Shown here: piece by piece, positions 1 to 8,225 of the stretch
Layout: the number at the start of each line of letters is the position of its first letter
Numbering within the stretch: the first letter of the stretch is position 1
Assembly: GCA_038279365.1 (NCBI GenBank)
Contig: JAYODI010000052.1
Coordinates: forward strand, 1-42,648
Reading direction: 5' to 3'
Source: Candidatus Latescibacterota bacterium
GTDB taxonomy: Bacteria; Latescibacterota; UBA2968
Length of the DNA: 42,648 nt
Notes under the pieces: model-generated
Seen by the model: only the letters and a program-made list of their open reading frames with translations
Database searches by the model: none
Told to the model about the DNA's origin: nothing
Program-made: the position numbers and the translations under genes

Positions 1-55
1 CACCCACAACCTGCCAAGAAACCACTGGCAGGTTCTTGAACCTTATACGTTATGA
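1..55 (+). repeat. attC site, family A, left part cut off by window edge
   Basis: Near copy of 2810-2863. Hairpin AACCTGCCA(8-16)/TGGCAGGTT(26-34), ending in R' GTTATGA (49-55). Confidence 0.8.
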
Positions 56-163
56 AAACTGGCGCAGAAAATCCCAACCACCCAACACTTAAAATTCACG
101 CACAAAACCTTCCAGCCAAACCGGAGACACCAACCCAAGAAGCAGATCTTTCAGTTTCTGCGT

Positions 164-203
164 GTTAATAACGCTTGATGTTATTAACGGAAGTCGTTAT
201 GTT
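164..203 (+). promoter_or_regulatory. higBA sigma70 promoter with tandem palindromic operators
   Basis: -35 TTGATG (175-180), 17 bp, -10 TATGTT (198-203). Inverted repeat GTTAATAAC-N7-GTTATTAAC (164-188) and TAACG-N5-CGTTA (185-199) overlap the promoter, as in HigA autoregulation. Confidence 0.7.
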
Positions 204-209
204 TGAGAT

Positions 210-491
210 ATGATCAGATCCTTCAAAGACAAAGAAGCCGAAAAAGTCTTTCGCGGTCAGTTTTCTCGCAAAATACCACAGGATATTCAACGGATTGCGG
301 CAAGAAAACTCGAACAGCTAAATGCTGCTACTGTCCTTGATACCCTACGTGTTCCACCTGGCAATCGACTCGAAGCATTGAAGCGTGATAGACAAGGTCA
401 ACATAGCATTCGTGTGAATGATCAGTGGCGTGTGTGTTTTGTGTGGCGTGATGATAATGCCTTTGACGTCGAAATTGTTGATTACCACTAA
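210..491 (+). CDS. higB: HigB/RelE-family toxin (plasmid maintenance system killer protein)
   Basis: 93 aa; MIRSF...PPGNRLEAL...QHSIRVNDQWRVCF...VEIVDYH signature. Confidence 0.95.
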   Translation: MIRSFKDKEAEKVFRGQFSRKIPQDIQRIAARKLEQLNAATVLDTLRVPPGNRLEALKRDRQGQHSIRVNDQWRVCFVWRDDNAFDVEIVDYH

Positions 492-500
492 GGAGAGACA

Positions 501-800
501 ATGGCTAAACGCGACTTTCCACCCATCCATCCCGGCGAAATCTTACTTGAGGATTTTCTCAAACCTATGCAGATGAGTCAATATCATTTGGCTCAAGGAA
601 TCGGAGTGTCTCCGCGTCGCATCAATGAAATAGTTCATGGAAAGCGAGGCATCACAGCAGACACCGCTTTGCGGTTGGGTCGTTTTTTTGGAATGGAAGC
701 ACAATTTTGGATGAACCTTCAAACCAGATACGATCTTGAAACAACCCGTGAATTCTTAGCTGAAAGACTGGATCAAGAAGTTCAGATGCACTTGGTCTAA
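501..800 (+). CDS. higA: HigA family antitoxin (HTH)
   Basis: PIHPGEILLEDFL...RRINEIVHGKRGITADTALRL...FWMNLQ..YDL; RBS AAGGAG; toxin-first gene order. Confidence 0.95.
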   Translation: MAKRDFPPIHPGEILLEDFLKPMQMSQYHLAQGIGVSPRRINEIVHGKRGITADTALRLGRFFGMEAQFWMNLQTRYDLETTREFLAERLDQEVQMHLV

Positions 801-893
801 AGCAAAACAAAAACTTCAAAAACAATGTTTATGGTGTGCGTTGTAAGTTGGCCTCTTTAAGGGCTTCGACGTGATTAAGGCCGCGCCAGCAAT

Positions 894-1034
894 GCATAAC
901 AAGTCCATTGCCGCACCACTCCATCCCCTGCCACCCAAACAAGGGTGTGACGTGATTTCTCTTTTTGACTGCAAGTTTACCGATTATCTTACTTGATAAT
1001 GTCACACCTTCGTCGGCAATGGCAGACGTTACCA
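894..1034 (+). repeat. attC site, family B (141 bp)
   Basis: R'' GCATAAC (894-900), CCATTGCCG (905-913) / CGGCAATGG (1014-1022), R' GTTACCA (1028-1034); inner stem GGTGTGAC/GTCACACC. Confidence 0.85.
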
Positions 1035-1219
1035 GCAACCAGCGCAAGGGTTGCCCCGCAACCCTACACCGGCAAATCGTGCACAAAAACAAAATACTAC
1101 ATAGCCAACAATGGGCACTCTTCTCTTATTGTCTTATCTCTTTGCGGAGTGATAGGGTAGCACAATATCAGATTGTGACACAAATAGGATCACGTTTGAC
1201 CTGAGACGAAAGGTATCTT

Positions 1220-2629
1220 TTGGCGAATAGAAAACCGAATATCGTATGGATTTATTGCGATGAACTGCGTGCCGATGCACTGGGATGTTATGGGCACCCC
1301 AGTCTGCAACTCCATACTCCCAACATCGACCGACTGGCAGATAGTGGTGTTCTTTTTAGCAACAACTTTTGCAATTCCCCCGTCTGTGTTGCCTCAAGAT
1401 GCTCTGTACTCACGGGTCTGTACCCAGAAGACACGGGAGTGTATAACAACGAGGGCGCATTCCCTGCCTTCCGCCTTCCACAACCTTTGCACACCTTCCC
1501 GGATGAATTCTCAAGAAACGGCTATGAAACAGCTAATTTTGGTAAACTTCACGTCCCCAGGGAGATGGCGCCTGATGTTTTTCAGCATCACAATGCGACC
1601 GGTAGTGAAGGCAATTTCTGGAAGATTCTCGGTGAAGAAACACTTCAGGTCATTCGCTCGCCCAACGGCACTATCAACGGGGGGGTGTACCCAGATGATC
1701 AGATATACCCCCCTGATGCCGTTACTGATAACGGTTTACGCTGGATGGAGAATAGGAATGGGCCATATCTGATCAGGTTTTCGATTCAACAGCCACATAC
1801 GCCAGTTCTGCCACCTGCGAGATATGTTCGCTTATATGAGAACCAGGATCCCGGCTTGCCAGGCCCTCTGCCCAAGACACTGTCAGCCTTCGAGCGGCGT
1901 GTAGCGGAGATTCAAGATGTATTCAATATGGATCCGGAGCAGTTGGTTCTCACCAGAATTCACTATTACGCGCAAGTTGCCTGGATAGATTCTCAGGTTG
2001 GGCGGATCATGGAGTTTCTGGAACAGAACGGGTTGATCGAAAATACTGTAATCATCTTCAGCTCTGACCATGGAAACCCTGTCGGTGATACCGGTGCCTA
2101 TGAAAAACTGACCTTTACGCCTACGGTTCATCGGGTGCCTCTACTGATCTCCTTTCCGAGAACTATTCCGGCTGCTCAAGTCCGTGGCGATATCTGTGAT
2201 AGTCTCGATATCGGCCAGACACTATTTGGTTTGGCCGGTATTGATGCGCCCAAATCATTCAAAGGGCGCAACCTGTTTAGAGATCCAGCACCCGAGACAA
2301 TCTACTCAACCATTGGATACGGTCAGCCGTCCAGCAGATTTGCCCCCCTCAGAGGTTTCGGTAAATGGCGTGGTGATAGAGGGTGGCCTCGTCGCAGTTG
2401 TGTTCGTACGGATTGCTACCGACTTGATATGAACGTCCTGATCGACGGCGAGAAGCCCGGAGCTGACGAACAGGATGTCTTCCTAGCAGATGTCGTGGCT
2501 GACCCGCTGGAGTTCATAAATCTCGCGTCTGAACCGAAATATGCAGAAGTAGTTTGTGAGTTATCGAAGCGACTGGCGGAACATACTGAAGGCTCAGTTG
2601 AAGTCGCATCCGAGTCATTGCAGAGGTGA
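1220..2629 (+). CDS. Formylglycine-dependent sulfatase (S1), cassette-borne
   Basis: KPNIVWIYCDELRAD, TPNIDRLA, SPVCVASR motif, GKLH, SSDHG; TTG start with GAAAGG RBS. Confidence 0.9.
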   Translation: MANRKPNIVWIYCDELRADALGCYGHPSLQLHTPNIDRLADSGVLFSNNFCNSPVCVASRCSVLTGLYPEDTGVYNNEGAFPAFRLPQPLHTFPDEFSRNGYETANFGKLHVPREMAPDVFQHHNATGSEGNFWKILGEETLQVIRSPNGTINGGVYPDDQIYPPDAVTDNGLRWMENRNGPYLIRFSIQQPHTPVLPPARYVRLYENQDPGLPGPLPKTLSAFERRVAEIQDVFNMDPEQLVLTRIHYYAQVAWIDSQVGRIMEFLEQNGLIENTVIIFSSDHGNPVGDTGAYEKLTFTPTVHRVPLLISFPRTIPAAQVRGDICDSLDIGQTLFGLAGIDAPKSFKGRNLFRDPAPETIYSTIGYGQPSSRFAPLRGFGKWRGDRGWPRRSCVRTDCYRLDMNVLIDGEKPGADEQDVFLADVVADPLEFINLASEPKYAEVVCELSKRLAEHTEGSVEVASESLQR

Positions 2630-2631
2630 AA

Positions 2632-2690
2632 GACGAACAAGTTCTTGCAGGCGACGTTCTGACAACCTCGCCTGAGGAGTGACATCAAAA
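2632..2690 (+). repeat. Degenerate short attC directly after the sulfatase stop
   Basis: GACGAAC-aagtt-CTTGCAGGCGA...TCGCCTGAGG-agtgac-ATCAAAA: classical short attC layout with a bulged G, but R' GTT is replaced by ATC. Confidence 0.6.
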
Positions 2691-2770
2691 AAGAAGAAAA
2701 CCAGAATATATGGCGTGCACTAAATCTCTGCCCCTTTAGGGCTTCGCCGTGACGTGGCGCGCCACCAGAC

Positions 2771-2863
2771 GTGTAACACCAGATTCACGTTCCACACCAA
2801 AGCCCAACCACCCACAACCTGCCGAAAAAGCACCGGCAGGTTCGTGAATCTTAAACGTTATGT
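2771..2863 (+). repeat. attC site, family A (93 bp)
   Basis: R'' GTGTAAC (2771-2777), AGATTCACG (2781-2789)/CGTGAATCT (2843-2851), R' GTTATGT (2857-2863); inner hairpin AACCTGCCG/CGGCAGGTT. Confidence 0.85.
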
Positions 2864-2982
2864 GCAAGCAGCCTAAAAGGCAAATCATGCGCAAAAACCA
2901 TCTCTCCCAAAACCTTTAGAAGTGGTAACAGTCTTTCTCTTTTTTTCGTATATTTGTAGAAAAACATATATGAGACTCCAAA

Positions 2983-3315
2983 ATGAATCTCCCAAATCGG
3001 GAAAATGCTTACATTAGTCCAGAGAAATTGACTGAATATTTATTATCTGTATCGCACTCAACGGGTAAGACAAAAGCGCGATATCTTCGAACGGTTGGTT
3101 TCAACGAGCAAACAGCAGATATCCTTCAGCAAGGTTTAATCGGAATCGCTCAATCCTGCAGGGTTGTGAATTCTGTCGTAACTGTCCACGGCGAAAAATT
3201 CATTATAGACGGTGAACTCCAAGCACCCAACGGAAACTTTATTCAGCTGAGGACAATTTGGATAATTGATACCGGCCATAATCGACCTCGTTTTGTGACT
3301 GCTTATCCTGAATGA
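2983..3315 (+). CDS. DUF6883-like protein (putative toxin/RNase-like)
   Basis: LPN...I..EKL..YLL...H..GK.KA...GF...WIID....PRFVTAYP pattern recalled for DUF6883; coupled to the next ORF. Confidence 0.75.
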   Translation: MNLPNRENAYISPEKLTEYLLSVSHSTGKTKARYLRTVGFNEQTADILQQGLIGIAQSCRVVNSVVTVHGEKFIIDGELQAPNGNFIQLRTIWIIDTGHNRPRFVTAYPE

Positions 3316-3566
3316 GTGAAAGTGAGGAACCTGAAATGATCCAAGAATTAGAGACCGTTGTTTTAACCCATGATATCGAAAATGAGGGATTACAAAAAGG
3401 GGATGTTGGAGCCGTTGTACATTGCTATGAGGATGGTGAAGCATTTGAGGTGGAATTCGTAACGGCTGAAGGCAAAACAATCGGGGTTTTAACATTAACA
3501 GCGAAAGACATTCGCCCAATGATTAAAAGTGAAATTTTACACGTTCGCGATCTTGCGATACACTAA
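3312..3566 (+). CDS. DUF4926-like small protein (alternative start ATG 3336)
   Basis: ELETVVLTHDI..EGL.KGDVGAVVH.Y..GEAFEVEFV...GKT.GVLTL pattern; ATGA overlap with the upstream gene. Confidence 0.8.
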   Translation: MSESEEPEMIQELETVVLTHDIENEGLQKGDVGAVVHCYEDGEAFEVEFVTAEGKTIGVLTLTAKDIRPMIKSEILHVRDLAIH

Positions 3567-3644
3567 AAAGACAAAACCCAAATCTTATCGTGCGCATTCT
3601 ATAGATTTCCCTTTTTTGGCTTCGCCCTGATAGGGGCTGCCAGC

Positions 3645-3774
3645 ACATAACAAGACCATTTCCGCACCCAACCATCCATACAAGGTTGTAGCGTGATTTT
3701 TCTTTTCATCAAAACCTTACCGATTACCTTACTCAATAATGCTACACCCTCGTCGGCAATCGCAGACGTTAGTC
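3645..3774 (+). repeat. attC site, family B (130 bp)
   Basis: Homologous to 894-1034: R'' ACATAAC, CCATTTCCG/CGGCAATCG, R' GTTAGTC (3768-3774). Confidence 0.85.
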
Positions 3775-3944
3775 GACAGCGCCCCAACCACTCAAAAAAC
3801 AGCAAGCATATGGCGTGCAAAAACAAAATCATCTCTCCAAGCGCGCATTCTTTTCTTATACCCAAAGTGCAGCTATTCTGAAACACGATCATCTTGCAGA
3901 ACGCATATCGACTTGATGTTGATCAATATGGCTTTGCCCCAAGG

Positions 3945-3992
3945 ACTTAACTATCTCCGCCTCGAACCTTTGAGCAGAGGCACAAGTTATAA
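3945..3992 (+). repeat. Possible short/degenerate attC
   Basis: ACTTAAC...GCCTC...GAGGC...GTTATAA; only 48 bp. GTTATAACCC is nearly complementary to GGTTTATAAC after the VOC gene. Confidence 0.4.
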
Positions 3993-4029
3993 CCCTTAAT
4001 CAAGTTTTGCAGTAGGCGAGGGTTTTGAA

Positions 4030-4452
4030 ATGAGCGAATACTGGAATGTAATGGTACCCGAACTCACTGTCACAGATTTTGAAGGATCATTGTCTTTCTA
4101 CACAGATATTCTTGGCTTTAAGATTCGTAATCAAAGAGAAAATCCAAATTTTGCATATCTTGAGTATGAAAAAGTCCAGATTATGATCGAGCAATTCCAC
4201 GAAAATGGCTGGAATACAGCAGAACTTTCTCATCCTCTGGGTCGTGGGATAAATCTACAAATTGAGCTTACAAATATTCAGCCTATTCTTGATCGACTTG
4301 AAGATTCTAATATAGGGCTATATCGTGAAATCCAAGAATCATGGTATGACATAGGGCCAGTATTATCTGGACAAATAGAATTCTTAGTCCAAGATCCAGA
4401 TGGTTACTTACTCCGTTTCACGCAGTTTTTGGGGGAAAAGCCAAAAAAGTAG
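4030..4452 (+). CDS. VOC/glyoxalase/bleomycin-resistance family protein
   Basis: PEL.V.DF..SL.FY.DILGF...GRGINLQI...EFLVQDPDGYLLRF. Confidence 0.9.
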   Translation: MSEYWNVMVPELTVTDFEGSLSFYTDILGFKIRNQRENPNFAYLEYEKVQIMIEQFHENGWNTAELSHPLGRGINLQIELTNIQPILDRLEDSNIGLYREIQESWYDIGPVLSGQIEFLVQDPDGYLLRFTQFLGEKPKK

Positions 4453-4478
4453 CAAGTTTGAGATTTGCTCAAATCGGT

Positions 4479-4548
4479 TTATAACAAATTGAAATGAATA
4501 TCTTCAGATCAAATTTCCCTTGCTTGTGATCCCTATGCGGAGTTAGCT
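4479..4548 (+). repeat. Eroded attC-like remnant
   Basis: TTATAAC...GTTAGCT between two cassette-like genes; L-box pairing is poor. Confidence 0.3.
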
Positions 4549-4606
4549 TGATCTCAAATTCAAAATTCACCATCAAGCAATGGACCTAAACCCAAAGGAG
4601 TGAACC

Positions 4607-4909
4607 ATGTCTGTATACATCATTGCAAGCTACGATATTGAAGATCCAGAAGCATATGAAGGCTATGTTCCGGGTGTTGTACCGCTGCTTGGAAAACATG
4701 GCGCAGAAATCCTTGTTGCAGATTATGAGGCGAAAACGATTGAAGGGCAAGGTCGTGGGGTTCATGTTGTTCTGAAATTTGAATCAGAGGAAGCGACCTT
4801 AAATTGGTACAACGACCCAGACTACGCTCCAGTCAAGAAAATCCGACTCGACGCAACACAAAATGGAACACTTATAATGGCGAAGCAGTTTGTACCACCG
4901 TCTGAGTAG
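4607..4909 (+). CDS. DUF1330 domain protein
   Basis: YIIA...I.DPEAY..Y...KHGAE....EG.....VVLKF.SEEA...WY..P.Y....R; RBS AAGGAG. Confidence 0.9.
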   Translation: MSVYIIASYDIEDPEAYEGYVPGVVPLLGKHGAEILVADYEAKTIEGQGRGVHVVLKFESEEATLNWYNDPDYAPVKKIRLDATQNGTLIMAKQFVPPSE

Positions 4910-4958
4910 TTTGGGACTTATCTTGGTGCAGTTCGTTCTGCATAAGGATTTTTAGGCA

Positions 4959-5032
4959 AGAGTGGCCGTCATCTCTGATATGCAGGTAATCTTCAAGTGC
5001 TTCAGGCGATCCTTAACGATATCAAAAATTGA
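4959..5032 (+). pseudogene. Frameshifted N-terminal fragment of a metallophosphoesterase
   Basis: RVAVISDM, a 1-nt deletion, then GNLQVLQAILNDIKN*; matches the 'AVISDIHGNL.AL.AVL.DI' motif. Confidence 0.6.
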
Positions 5033-5171
5033 AGCTCAAACCCGAACTTCTACCCTGACCTTTATATCTCCAGACACCTCACAATCTCCCACACCAAAAC
5101 CTTCCCCATGTCAAAGAATGGCCTCCTCCCGTCCAGTGCCCCCACCATCATATGGATAAAGCGAAAAATCA

Positions 5172-5210
5172 TTGGCAACGATTGCAACACTGCGCTATCT
5201 TGTCTGACAA
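5172..5210 (+). promoter_or_regulatory. Candidate gudD promoter with LacI-like and GntR/FadR-like operators
   Basis: TGGCAACGATTGCA (5173-5186) resembles TGNAANCGNTTNCA; palindrome TTGTCTGACAA (5200-5210) overlaps -10 TATCTT. Confidence 0.5.
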
Positions 5211-5322
5211 CACATTGACGTTACGCTCACCCAATGTTGCGTAGCCGTGTTTTATGCTGAGCAGAACCACCTGCTTAAGACCATAGACATTGCCCTTGGC
5301 ATAGCAATCAGAAGGAGATGGC

Positions 5323-6684
5323 ATGACAGAATCAAACATCAAAGCCCATACAGACCATCACGCGGCCCCCGTGGTCACCTCTATGCGGGTCGTGCCTGTT
5401 GCAGGATACGACAGCATGTTGTTAAACCTCAGTGGTGCACATGGTCCTTTTTTTACACGCAACATCGTCATTCTTCAAGACAGCGCAGGACACACAGGTA
5501 TTGGTGAAGTGCCTGGGGGCGAAAAAATTCGCCAAACACTCGAAGATGCTCGTGAATTGGTTGTGGGCCAACCCATTGGTGCATACAACAACACCCTCAA
5601 CCAAGTGCGCAAACGCTTTGCAGATCGCGACGCGGGAGGGCGCGGCAACCAAACCTTTGACATGCGCATTACCATTCACGCAGTAACCGCACTGGAAGCC
5701 TCCTTGCTCGATCTGCTCGGACAATTTCTTAACGTACCCGTGGCGGCCCTGCTGGGTCAGGGGCAACAACGCGAAGCGGTAGAAATATTGGGGTATCTGT
5801 TTTATGTAGGCGATCGCAACAAAACCGACCTGCCCTATCGCAGTGAAGCCGATGCAAACAACGACTGGTTCCGCCTGCGCAATGAGGAAGCTCTAACCCC
5901 CGAAAGCATTGTAAAACTGGCCGAGGCCACCCATGCACGGTATGGATTTAACGATTTTAAACTCAAAGGCGGGGTACTGCGCGGTGAAGAAGAAGCCGAG
6001 GCCATCATTGCATTGGCTGAACGATTTCCCAATGCACGGGTAACCTTAGACCCAAATGGTGGTTGGTTGCTTCAAGATGCCATTCGCATTGGTCACACCC
6101 TACGCAATGTTTTGGCCTATGCAGAAGATCCGTGTGGTGCCCAAGATGGGTTTTCAAGCCGCGAAATTATGGCCGAGTTTCGTCGTGCAACCGGCCTACC
6201 AACGGCCACCAATATGGTCGCAACAGACTGGCGACAAATGGCACACACGATTCAATTGCAATCGGTTGACATTCCACTTGCCGACCCACACTTTTGGACG
6301 ATGCAAGGTTCGGTGCGTGTCGCCCAAATGTGCCACGAATGGGGATTAACGTGGGGGTCTCACTCAAACAACCACTTTGACATCTCCCTGGCCATGTTTA
6401 CCCATGTTGCCGCAGCAGCACCAGGCAACATCACAGCCATCGACACCCACTGGATTTGGCAAGACGGACAACGCCTCACCCGCGAACCCCTTCAAATTGA
6501 GGGTGGGCTGGTGCAAGTGCCCCAAAAACCTGGCCTGGGAATCGACATCGACGAAGCGCAATTGGCAAAGGCCAATGAGCTGTACAATCAACATGGATTG
6601 GGTGCCCGTGACGACGCAGTTGCCATGCAATTTCTCATTCCAAACTGGACATTTGACAACAAACGTCCTTGCATGGTGCGCTAA
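5323..6684 (+). CDS. gudD: Glucarate dehydratase
   Basis: [64 protein letters not shown]. Confidence 0.95.
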
Positions 6685-6734
6685 ACAACCTTTCAAGACA
6701 AACAAATCGCATACAAAATGCAAAAGGAGACAGC

Positions 6735-8225
6735 ATGGAATTTGCAGACGGGTTGGTCAACTACGAAGCTTTTGGTGCAAAAGGAGACGGTGTTACAGAC
6801 GATATGCAAGCCATCTGCGACGCCCACGAATATGCCAATACACACAGGCTGAGTGTACGCACCAAGCCAGATGCCACCTACCACCTCGGAGCGCGCGCCC
6901 TCACCGCCGTGATCACCACCAATACCGATTGGAACACCTCGCGATTTACCTTAGACGACACACAGGTTGAAGATCATAAAAAATCGTTATTTGAAGTGCG
7001 TTCCTTGTTAGACCCCATAGAACTCCAAATTGACAAACTCACACGAGATCAAAAAAAGGTCGATGCACGCCCAGAGCGCGACTGTCATGTATTGGTCGAA
7101 AACGACAACAAAAGACTGTATATCCGAAGGGGACTCAATCAAAATAATGGTACGCCCCAACACGACTGCTTTGTGCTTCGCAAAGACGGCACCATAGACT
7201 CCCCCATCGACTGGCATTACGACACAGTGACTCGGGTAGAGGCCCACCCCATTGACGACGAACCTCTGATCATTCGCGGTGGTATTTTTACCACATTTGC
7301 AAACCGCATGAAACAAGATGTGGGCTACAATTATTGGTCTCGAAACATTGTGATCTCACGGTCAAACACCGAAATAGACGGCTTGACCCACTATGTTGTG
7401 GGAGAAACTTCGGTTGGTCACCCCTATTCGGGCTTTATCAGTGTGCGCCAATGTGCCGATGTCACCTTGCGAAACTGCTTTGCCACCGGCCACAAAATTT
7501 ACTCAACCATTGGCGCCGCAGGCAAACCCGTAAACATGGGCTCCTACGATTACAACGCCAACAATGTGGTTAATTTTAGCATGATCAACTGCAAAATGAA
7601 CCACATTACAGACCGCTCACGTTGGGGTGTGATTGGATCCAACTTCTGCAAAAACATTTTGCTCGAAGACTGCACCCTCTCCCGAATGGACACGCACATG
7701 GGCGTATCGGGCAGTTATGTCATCCGAGGTTGCACACTGGGCTGGATGGGCCTCAACGCCATTGGCCGTGGCGACCTTATCATCGAAGATGCCACACTAT
7801 ATGGAAGCACACTCGTTAGCTTCCGCAGAGACTATGGAAGCACCTGGGAAGGCGACCTTTTTATTCGCAACAGCAAATGGATACCGGCCTGTGGAGATAC
7901 CCAATTGCCTCACATGATCAACGTCAGCAACGATGGCATGCACGACTTTGGTTATCCCTGCTCTATGCCCACCACCGTCACCATTGATGGGCTGTTTGTC
8001 GACGATTCGAACCACCCCGAAGACTACCAAGGCATGTATTTCTTCACCGATCATGAAGCACCTAACGACGGCGTTGGAGAATTGCCCCCGTCTGCCGAAC
8101 GTCCCTATCCTTATGCCCCATGTCAAAAAATTTCTGTAAAAGGACTGACAACGGCCAGTGGCAAAAAACCACGCGTTTCTCCAAATGAGCAGGTCGCCAA
8201 CCTTGTTGACGTCATTGAAGCATGA
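6735..8225 (+). CDS. Parallel beta-helix (pectin-lyase-like) protein
   Basis: N-terminal YEAFGAKGDGVTDD motif and Asn/Cys-rich beta-helix periodicity; true start ATG 6735 after AAGGAG; no obvious signal peptide. Confidence 0.7.
   Translation: MEFADGLVNYEAFGAKGDGVTDDMQAICDAHEYANTHRLSVRTKPDATYHLGARALTAVITTNTDWNTSRFTLDDTQVEDHKKSLFEVRSLLDPIELQIDKLTRDQKKVDARPERDCHVLVENDNKRLYIRRGLNQNNGTPQHDCFVLRKDGTIDSPIDWHYDTVTRVEAHPIDDEPLIIRGGIFTTFANRMKQDVGYNYWSRNIVISRSNTEIDGLTHYVVGETSVGHPYSGFISVRQCADVTLRNCFATGHKIYSTIGAAGKPVNMGSYDYNANNVVNFSMINCKMNHITDRSRWGVIGSNFCKNILLEDCTLSRMDTHMGVSGSYVIRGCTLGWMGLNAIGRGDLIIEDATLYGSTLVSFRRDYGSTWEGDLFIRNSKWIPACGDTQLPHMINVSNDGMHDFGYPCSMPTTVTIDGLFVDDSNHPEDYQGMYFFTDHEAPNDGVGELPPSAERPYPYAPCQKISVKGLTTASGKKPRVSPNEQVANLVDVIEA

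Follow-up and report, generated by a model that had tools for sequence, protein, structure and literature searches.

A 42,648-nt stretch of a Candidatus Latescibacterota genome (GCA_038279365.1, contig JAYODI010000052.1; hereafter the window) carries, within positions 1–4500, part of an integron-type cassette array in which unrelated genes sit between the same two conserved non-coding ends. The unit order is R′ (GTTA), a leader of ~ 65 nt, cargo, a trailer of ~ 95 nt and attC, and this frame is found across the lineage, independent of both the cargo and the attC subtype. The array is one of chromosomal integron-type cassettes, a CALIN (cluster of attC sites lacking an integron integrase) by current software rules. 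Our leading interpretation of the flanks, which we hold tentatively and somewhat short of probable, is that they add accessory DNA sites, specific to the lineage, to a complex site of cassette recombination. It is suggested by their position, polarity and block conservation and by the absence of folding. The draft genome (G000; 98.5% complete, 7.4% contamination) comprises 199 contigs and 6.03 Mb, with its arrays split across six contigs, and the window makes up the initial 42.6 kb of contig C16. Sites were called by our own criteria (AAC...GTT and L″/L′ pairing), which yield four imperfect palindromes of the attC type (R″-L″...L′-R′) in the window and ~ 16 in the genome.

Both flanks are built of discrete blocks. 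Starting from R′ (GTTAnnn), the leader consensus continues with GCAAGC(A/G)GCGCAG, a few variable bases, CCCAACCACCC(A/C)AC(A/C)CC, a few more bases and AAATCG(C/T)GCACAAAAAC; in short form, the standard ~ 65-nt 5′ leader reads GTTAnnn-GCAAGCGGCGCAG-..-CCCAACCACCC-..-AAATCGYGCACAAAAAC. The C-rich block is absent from a short leader variant, seen for example at 2857–2898 of the window. The first half of the ~ 95-nt 3′ trailer consists of an A-rich tract with AAAACCA, followed by (T)ATGGYGYGCRC, TAnnnTTG and CCCC(T)T, and the second half of GGCTTCGCCGTGA, GGGGC and (GCGC)YGCCAGC, leading into nnnTAAC, which is R″. The 5′ edge of the trailer lies ~ 36 nt ahead of the ATGGYGYGC box, counted from its invariant C; farther out than about −40, base content is that of the background.

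All motifs named in the initial annotation, which had first described a shared trailer and leader around the attC sites, are present where it had placed them and are rare in the genome. The box GGCTTCG[AC]C[GC]TGA occurs at 862, 2740 and 3618 and in two more copies in 6.03 Mb, one in another array (C173:21542) and one without attC context (C128:53176). The leader motif AAATC[GA]TGC[AG]CAAAAAC is found exclusively at 1074 and 2882, and the 12-mer ATATGGCGTGCA at 2708 and 3808, with one unrelated copy on C37. A trailer hidden Markov model (HMM) built from 10 copies and searched against the whole genome gave 13 matches with E < 1e-3 (best 1.2e-17), each of them ending at the R″ of an attC, on C16, C3, C53, C173, C198 and C37; the other six listed matches have E ≥ 0.05, and one of them also falls within an array. 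The leader HMM gave 14 matches with E < 0.01 and three weaker ones, all on array contigs, and one elsewhere at E = 5.2. As this model was trained on 15 of the sites it matched, its value lies in the lack of copies elsewhere. The block CCCAACCACCC, with at most one mismatch, occurs 15 times in the 19.2 kb of arrays, always in sense orientation, and 442 times in the remaining 6.01 Mb, on both strands. Three ways in which the original proposal could have failed are thus excluded: the flank similarity is far above chance in the HMM searches, the flanks occur at most attC sites of the genome's arrays, and every significant trailer or leader match lies at a cassette junction, which is not the pattern of an ordinary repetitive extragenic palindrome or miniature inverted-repeat transposable element.

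One trailer type precedes both the ~ 87-nt and the ~ 130–135-nt attC sites. Among the ~ 16 sites of G000 with an R″, nine follow a full trailer, two a variant without the TTCGCC box, three a degenerate trailer and two none; of these last two, one belongs to a first cassette lacking an open reading frame (ORF) and the other, which is truncated, lies behind a reversed gene. The spacing from trailer to leader across attC is 73–125 nt (9 nt at one stem-less junction). The distances to the cargo vary: the gap from leader to start codon is ~ 85–200 nt in the window's four cassettes and ~ 20 nt in one cassette on C53, and that from stop codon to trailer is 0–55 nt. In a C3 cassette with two reversed VapBC-like genes (antitoxin-like and PIN-like), leader and trailer are still in attC polarity. 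The fixed distance to attC, together with the attC polarity, argues that the flanks serve the cassette or the junction, and not translation of their own cargo.

The flanks are also part of the mobile unit. Evidence on the cassette borders, at contig level, comes from three other metagenomes, whose contigs were aligned to window 1–5400 at 90% likeness. One X5 contig matches from 2856 rightwards (R′, leader and a gene pair for DUF6883 and DUF4926) and has a different attC end on the left, an X8 contig matches up to 2849 in the attC of the sulfatase cassette and then continues with another R′ and leader, and a 1,399-letter X5 contig matches 43–1029, ending at 1029, with unlike sequence to the left of 43. 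As in integrons, the cassette junctions map to R′, whose G is at 49, 1028 and 2857, and agree with a G|TT crossover, which means that the leader moves with the downstream cargo, and the trailer and attC with the upstream cargo. The mobile unit begins with the TT of an R′ and closes with the G of the R′ that follows. Since both flanks are contained in it, trailer, attC and leader would be contiguous on an excised circle, as the initial annotation had supposed.

The frame is widespread among relatives of this bacterium. A sequence-only trailer model (R1; cut-off E ≤ 0.01) has matches in 30 of 41 related genomes, covering both families of the order, and a leader model (R2) in 33 of the 41; the relatives are kin, so these genome counts are not independent. 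In a sample of the phylum (151 genomes), R1 matches 18 of 29 genomes of family f1, 16 of 19 of f2, 3 of 64 of f3 (a third family of the class) and none of 38 from 11 other families, so that the trailer hardly occurs in this sample outside two families of one order. Trailers compared pairwise have a mean identity of 0.59 within G000, 0.60 between G000 and f2 and 0.62 between G000 and other f1 genera. Divergence within the genome thus equals that between families, yet the same blocks are kept, which argues for constraint and not for recent amplification; the comparison points to the trailer copies of one genome being as old as the order. The arrangement recurs in the other family, where genome G025 has, in order, a recombinase, two hairpins, GTTACAC, leader, gene, trailer, attC and leader, and G002 is alike. 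Genomes with a single match also have a leader 0.6–1.4 kb upstream of the trailer, with one gene between them.

The best match to an integron integrase in G000 is a tyrosine recombinase at C128:100–1170. It scores 223 bits with the NCBIfam model TIGR02249 (cut-off 265), in an alignment limited to positions 2–171 and 231–314, and 218.8 with XerA (cut-off 220). No protein in G000 lies above the integron-integrase cut-off, hence the genome has no canonical IntI. The nearest solved relative of the C128 recombinase is VchIntIA (2a3v; E = 7.8e-41). The IntI signature insert is missing from it: 23 residues stand against 65 in VchIntIA, which include the insert. At the N terminus the protein has 85 extra residues, conserved in at least 7,985 proteins (E ≤ 1e-20), with W38, W45 and F61 invariant. 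The Pfam HARP model matches this N-terminal domain below threshold in 13 of 22 family members (best E = 4.2e-4), and the top sequence match of the N-terminal profile in the PDB is the HARP domain of SMARCAL1 (4o66; E = 0.016). A Foldseek search with a model of the domain (predicted local distance difference test score 78.6) ranks the XPB damage-recognition domain first (E = 0.034, probability 0.98), with 4o66 (E = 0.059) and MutS domain I also among the top matches. HARP, the XPB damage-recognition domain and MutS domain I are regarded as one class of structure-specific DNA binders. A recombinase without the insert and with a putative HARP-like N-terminal domain fits a site that is read by structure. 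Upstream of the recombinase start by ~ 95 nt, at about 1263–1279 of locus L009 (C128), lies a perfect 7-3-7 palindrome (TTGAACA ACA TGTTCAA), which may be an operator; in classical integrons, intI is under LexA control.

The 3′ end of the C128 recombinase gene leads into two hairpins, and a 43-nt overlap between contigs joins these to the C198 array, which has the same orientation. Recombinase and cassettes are thus co-oriented in G000, as they are in G002 and G025, and the divergent intI of integrons is not seen. The junction between recombinase and array consists of one or two hairpins followed by GTTA. Three attI-like copies are present in G000 (C128:1–100 with C198:46790–46871, C173:22600–22720 and C3:29570–29640), each at the start of a cassette array. 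They are regions of ~ 100 nt with two hairpins, the second directly before GTTA and the leader, and only one of them lies behind a recombinase gene. The trailer HMM, even at E ≤ 10, did not match the attI-side sequences, whose likeness to trailers (AAACCAGAATA; GGTTCGCAGT or GCTTCAGCGTGGAA versus GGCTTCGCCGTGA) is by eye only. The first unit past an attI-like site is an ORF-less cassette of ~ 110–150 nt at C173:22320–22600 in G000 and at L060:3210–3470 in G002; the two are similar, and both end in CCCAACCACC..CCAGCC ahead of attC. In G002, the end of the recombinase gene itself is formed by repeated CCGACA(CAG) units.

Taken as accessory sites, the flanks would work as follows. The innermost ~ 13 nt on each side (GCCAGCnnnTAAC / GTTAnnnGCAAGC) would be lengthened R boxes bound by the recombinase, and the outer blocks lineage-specific accessory DNA sites. 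On the excised circle, trailer, attC and leader would form one complex recombination site of ~ 300 bp, analogous to phage attP with its arms or to cer and psi with their accessory sequences. The binder of the outer blocks could be a host factor or the extra N-terminal domain of the recombinase, and the bound blocks would tune attC folding, synapsis or direction.

Several points weigh against this. We infer the function of the flanks, whether in recombination or in expression, from position only, and the −10-like TAnnTTTG at a fixed place in the trailer suits a role in transcription equally well. Every Foldseek match of the N-terminal domain has E > 0.001. What links the C128 recombinase to an array is the overlap of 43 nt with C198, together with an identical stretch within C173. 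Moreover, one relative with trailers, G005, has a canonical IntI that exceeds the curated cut-off (two frames, 274 + 179 bits), and such a recombinase is absent from many genomes in which one or two framed cassettes occur. The frame thus tracks the lineage and not one type of recombinase. Finally, in Bacteroidota and Ignavibacteriota arrays that lie beside the same recombinase family, flank conservation ends within ~ 13 nt of AAC/GTT, which shows that the family does not need the outer blocks. As to the IntI of G005, it lies at L141 (C423) 2584–3560 in overlapping frames (model positions 1–217 and 210–314), the result of a frameshift or an assembly error, and C423 ends 70 nt upstream of the gene.

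The arrays of other phyla also help to divide the flanks. Across 79 loci of the recombinase family in named genomes of other phyla, neither the trailer nor the leader HMM has a match. Ten of these loci have at least three attC-like hairpins, mostly directly downstream of the recombinase and co-oriented with it, unit alignments verify true repeats at L107, L123, L063 and L105, and the N-terminal W...W motif can be recognized by eye in seven of eight translated recombinases of these loci. Because conservation over ~ 13 nt is shared with other phyla, the inner 13 nt are probably part of the binding site of the recombinase family; the outer ~ 55–80 nt, on the sequences compared here, are a speciality of this order. 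At L063, L094, L097, L105, L107 and L123 (Ignavibacteriota and Bacteroidota), the recombinase match at ~ 6001–7000 is followed by three to eight co-oriented attC-like hairpins (~ 120–150 nt). Such arrays may represent an integron-type system not yet recognized, which software would file as CALIN.

The main rival to accessory sites is an outward promoter and untranslated region (UTR) module, which we consider rather unlikely, though well worth weighing. A trailer promoter, with ATGGYGYGC as an operator in the spacer and TAnnTTTG as the −10, would drive the next cassette through attC, and the C-rich, G/T-poor leader, for which we would likewise not give even odds in this role, would be the end of the 5′ UTR, a Rho-loading or insulating tract, such that a cassette switches on or insulates its downstream neighbor. 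An orientation bound to attC and not to the own cargo is what an outward promoter predicts, and an A-rich tract lies upstream of the ATGGYGYGC box. TAnnTTTG, with at least five of its six positions, is present in 18 of 46 distinct trailers, in 15 of them at one offset, compared with 3.2 ± 1.6 in shuffled windows, although this is a weak test because any conserved motif outdoes shuffles. Upstream of long ORFs (n = 2,424) TA..TTTG is more frequent in sense than in antisense (286 versus 184), with a peak of 49 versus 21 at −60..−40, and the sense enrichment of TTGACA peaks at −100..−60. These genome-wide motifs suggest a hybrid promoter of a classical −35 and a Bacteroidota-like −7/−10, as exemplified at window 2925–2954. 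In the trailer, however, a TTGACA-like −35 is missing at 16–19 nt: AAAACCA is unlike it, and TTGT(T/C)T is just ~ 13 nt away. A sigma-70 scan of 1–5400 returned 10 sites against 8.1 ± 2.7 in shuffles, with none at the −10 position of a trailer, and TAnnTTTG was not seen, by eye, in the attI-side sequences ahead of the first cassettes. RNA run X17 yielded just three 151-nt contigs, all within cargo genes (432–582, 3047–3197 and 3333–3483), where transcript ends are not visible.

Two further explanations fare worse. It is very improbable that the flanks act by base pairing, either as long complementary arms, trailer with leader, that extend the attC hairpin (in single-stranded DNA, or as a processing stem when transcribed), or with the trailer as a structured RNA motif. 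The consensus does look inverted (GCGCYGCCAGC before R″ versus GCAAGCRGCGC after R′, and GTGCGC versus GCGCAC), and in a fixed register the offsets 7–8 outside the R box pair at 0.53 in 18 units versus 0.28 in shuffles, a value that 0 of 2000 shuffles reach. Offsets 11–17, however, pair at 0.48 versus 0.42 (124 of 2000 shuffles reach this) and offsets 19–40 at or below shuffles, so that an attC hairpin extended by complementary arms was rejected, its pairing not exceeding shuffles beyond two extra base pairs. Local complementarity between 36-nt flanks in the 18 units averages 6.64 when both belong to one attC and 6.42 when they are non-cognate, with shuffles at 6.41 ± 1.44, and single-sequence DNA folds of 12 units are inconsistent. 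As for RNA, a stem of CCCC/GGGG around GGCTTCGCC is conceivable and has 73.5% of its cells paired, but this hairpin around the TTCGCC box proved no better than shuffles or slid registers. RNAalifold found three pairs with nine trailer sequences and none with 50, and Rfam has no match at E ≤ 1 in window 1–8000. The RNA structure envisaged in the initial annotation therefore finds no backing, with no consensus fold found and no covariation above controls, and the tests together largely refute pairing arms and folded RNA alike. A mini-ORF in the trailer (ATG GYG YGC ... stop) was discarded as well, since the variable positions of the box are first and second codon positions and the stop is unconserved. 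The second explanation, that the frame was left by cassette genesis, is doubtful. Cargo would have been placed between a standard leader and trailer, a mark of the maker for which no present function is needed. The frame is confined to one order and cassettes of the same recombinase family in other phyla are without it, so that framed cassettes must arise inside the lineage, with both ends added. Both borders of the cargo are A-rich with, by eye, a similar CAAAAACC(A) motif at the leader end and the trailer start, but this likeness is one of low complexity. No empty frame was found: none of 32 leader-to-trailer pairs is shorter than 400 nt and the minimum is 550 nt, which also goes against the earlier proposal that cargo was inserted into a pre-existing element. 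The initial annotation had proposed looking for a reverse transcriptase or HUH nuclease gene beside intI; reading by eye, we noticed neither these nor another candidate maker gene in G000 over ~ 1.5 kb beyond the recombinase gene, whose other side is the array, or in the array region of G025. Trailers that have diverged within a genome as far as between families and still keep the same blocks show a pattern of selection, which neutral relics would not.

A bolder combination of these ideas is, in our estimate, unlikely: trailer, attC and leader would be the working part of a second, unrecognized kind of integron, run by insert-less HARP-domain tyrosine recombinases, and the order would build its own cassettes on the standard frame. 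If true, the frame would mark the point at which cargo and attC are joined, making cassette genesis directly traceable.

In Cury et al. 2016 (PMC4889954), CALINs are attC clusters without an integron integrase, IntI is defined by a specific insert near patch III (intI_Cterm profile), and just 50 of 18,808 other tyrosine recombinases adjoined an attC. The window array and those on C3, C53, C173 and C198 each have at least two attC sites within 4 kb and no IntI nearby. As in sedentary chromosomal integrons and CALINs, the cassettes carry co-oriented, mostly promoterless, unrelated small genes and toxin–antitoxin pairs, a palindrome from ..AAC to GTT.. follows each gene, the attC sites are homogeneous within the lineage and the borders are at R′. 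Typical cassettes have short unconserved flanks, whereas here ~ 65 and ~ 95 nt are conserved outside R′ and R″. Unlike in IntI integrons, the adjacent recombinase is without the IntI-specific region and is co-oriented with the cassettes, and the three attI-like copies differ from both integrons and CALINs. In the Vibrio cholerae repeats (VCR) of Vibrio, the conserved unit is the attC itself, about 120–130 nt. Like them, the present repeats are lineage-specific and highly similar between unrelated cassettes of a chromosomal array, whereas here two attC size classes share flanks outside attC, with block conservation at the level of the order. The arms of lambda attP and the accessory sequences of cer and psi make up complex recombination sites of tyrosine recombinases. 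The cassette junctions share with them a core crossover site with 70–100 bp of conserved non-coding DNA on both sides at a constant distance, as well as a recombinase that has an additional N-terminal domain, here a putative DNA binder. In contrast to the lambda arm binder, this domain is HARP/XPB damage-recognition-domain-like and the partner site is a hairpin-forming attC.

A literature search, covering few subscription journals and no supplements, retrieved no account of sequence conserved outside attC, of tyrosine recombinases with a HARP domain or of integrons in this lineage. The lineage described here bears on how integron cassettes originate and on what they need besides attC for movement or expression: its unrelated cassettes number in the dozens and share two non-coding ends, built of order-wide blocks clearly separable from attC. 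The recombinase family, in turn, is widespread and would escape the IntI call of current software through its HARP-like N-terminal domain and lack of the IntI insert. If the family is active, part of the supposedly integrase-less CALINs would have an enzyme of their own.

In the window, all array features lie on the forward strand. The contig begins in the 3′ part of a short-type attC (1–55) with R′ GTTATGA at 49–55; these 55 nt match the end of C37 exactly and that of C53 at 97% identity, which indicates an assembly fork at a repeated attC. The leader of the first cassette (49–110; leader HMM E = 1.3e-8, R2 E = 1.2e-10) comprises R′, GGCGCAG, CCCAACCACCC and AATTCACGCACAAAAC. Its higBA cargo (210–800) encodes a HigB-like toxin (210–491; PF05015, E = 1.5e-19) and a helix-turn-helix antitoxin (501–800; PF01381, E = 1e-7), and its trailer (801–893; HMM E = 1.2e-17, R1 52.8 bits) contains the A-rich tract, the ATGGTGTGC box (831–839), TAAGTTGG, CCTCTT, GGCTTCGACGTGA (862–874) and GGCCGCGCCAGCA. 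The long-type attC that follows (894–1034), recognized by sequence and L″/L′ pairing, has R″ GCATAAC at 894–900 and R′ GTTACCA at 1028–1034. The next leader (1028–1096; leader HMM E = 1.5e-9, R2 E = 1.3e-14) precedes a sulfatase gene (1220–2629; PF00884, E = 1.1e-42), whose trailer (2682–2770; HMM E = 2.1e-15, R1 51.9 bits) has ATGGCGTGC at 2710–2718 and GGCTTCGCCGTGA at 2740–2752. A short-type attC (2771–2863; R″ GTGTAAC at 2771–2777, R′ GTTATGT at 2857–2863) is followed by the short leader variant without the CCCAACCACCC block (2857–2898; leader HMM E = 1.4e-5) and by the genes for DUF6883 (2983–3315) and DUF4926 (3312–3566), assigned by a Pfam-type domain search and together spanning 2983–3566. 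The trailer of this cassette (3567–3644; HMM E = 5.8e-16, R1 60.9 bits) has ATCGTGCGC at 3587–3595 and GGCTTCGCCCTGA at 3618–3630 and leads into the second long-type attC (3645–3774; R″ ACATAAC at 3645–3651, R′ GTTAGTC at 3768–3774), which is 79–87% identical to that at 894–1034. The leader of the last recognizable cassette (3768–3848; leader HMM E = 4e-9) precedes the end of the array (4030–4909), with genes that a domain search identifies as glyoxalase-like (4030–4452) and DUF1330 (4607–4909), after which there is neither a trailer nor a clear attC. The cargoes are unrelated, as had been noted earlier.

The two long-type attC sites appear again in a low-depth X2 contig, which joins 991 (attC 894–1034) to 3737 (attC 3645–3774) and represents a natural variant without the sulfatase and DUF-pair cassettes. 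A separate rearrangement of the window array, proposed from joints at 2849/2860–3723 and loose ends at 73, 2811 and 3764, was rejected as cross-mapping of paralogous junctions on C53 and C198. The 15-mer GCAYTCTTYTCTTAT (GCA[CT]TCTT[CT]TCTTAT) occurs in the genome solely at 1115–1129 and 3845–3859, that is, 87 and 77 nt past R′ in two cassettes after long-type attC sites and outside the order-wide leader.

Some junctions in relatives depart from the standard form. Stem-less junctions, in which the trailer and R″ are followed by 5–6 nt, R′ and the start of a leader, with L″-loop-L′ missing, occur at L037:1430–1562 (G009) and L056:9440–9540 (G025), with counterparts at L033, L036 and L047, and resemble either a simple double-stranded core site or a collapsed attC. 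At L042/L043 the trailer leads directly into GTTAGCCGAAGCGG. A structure-only attC finder run over the genome was too noisy for counts and was set aside, as it mostly picked 7-nt tandem repeats. Runs of such repeats are located at C13:43484–43629, C27:55–199, C33:5976–6127, C64:4118–4302, C77:3713–3886, C87:16058–16179 and L060:3010–3060.

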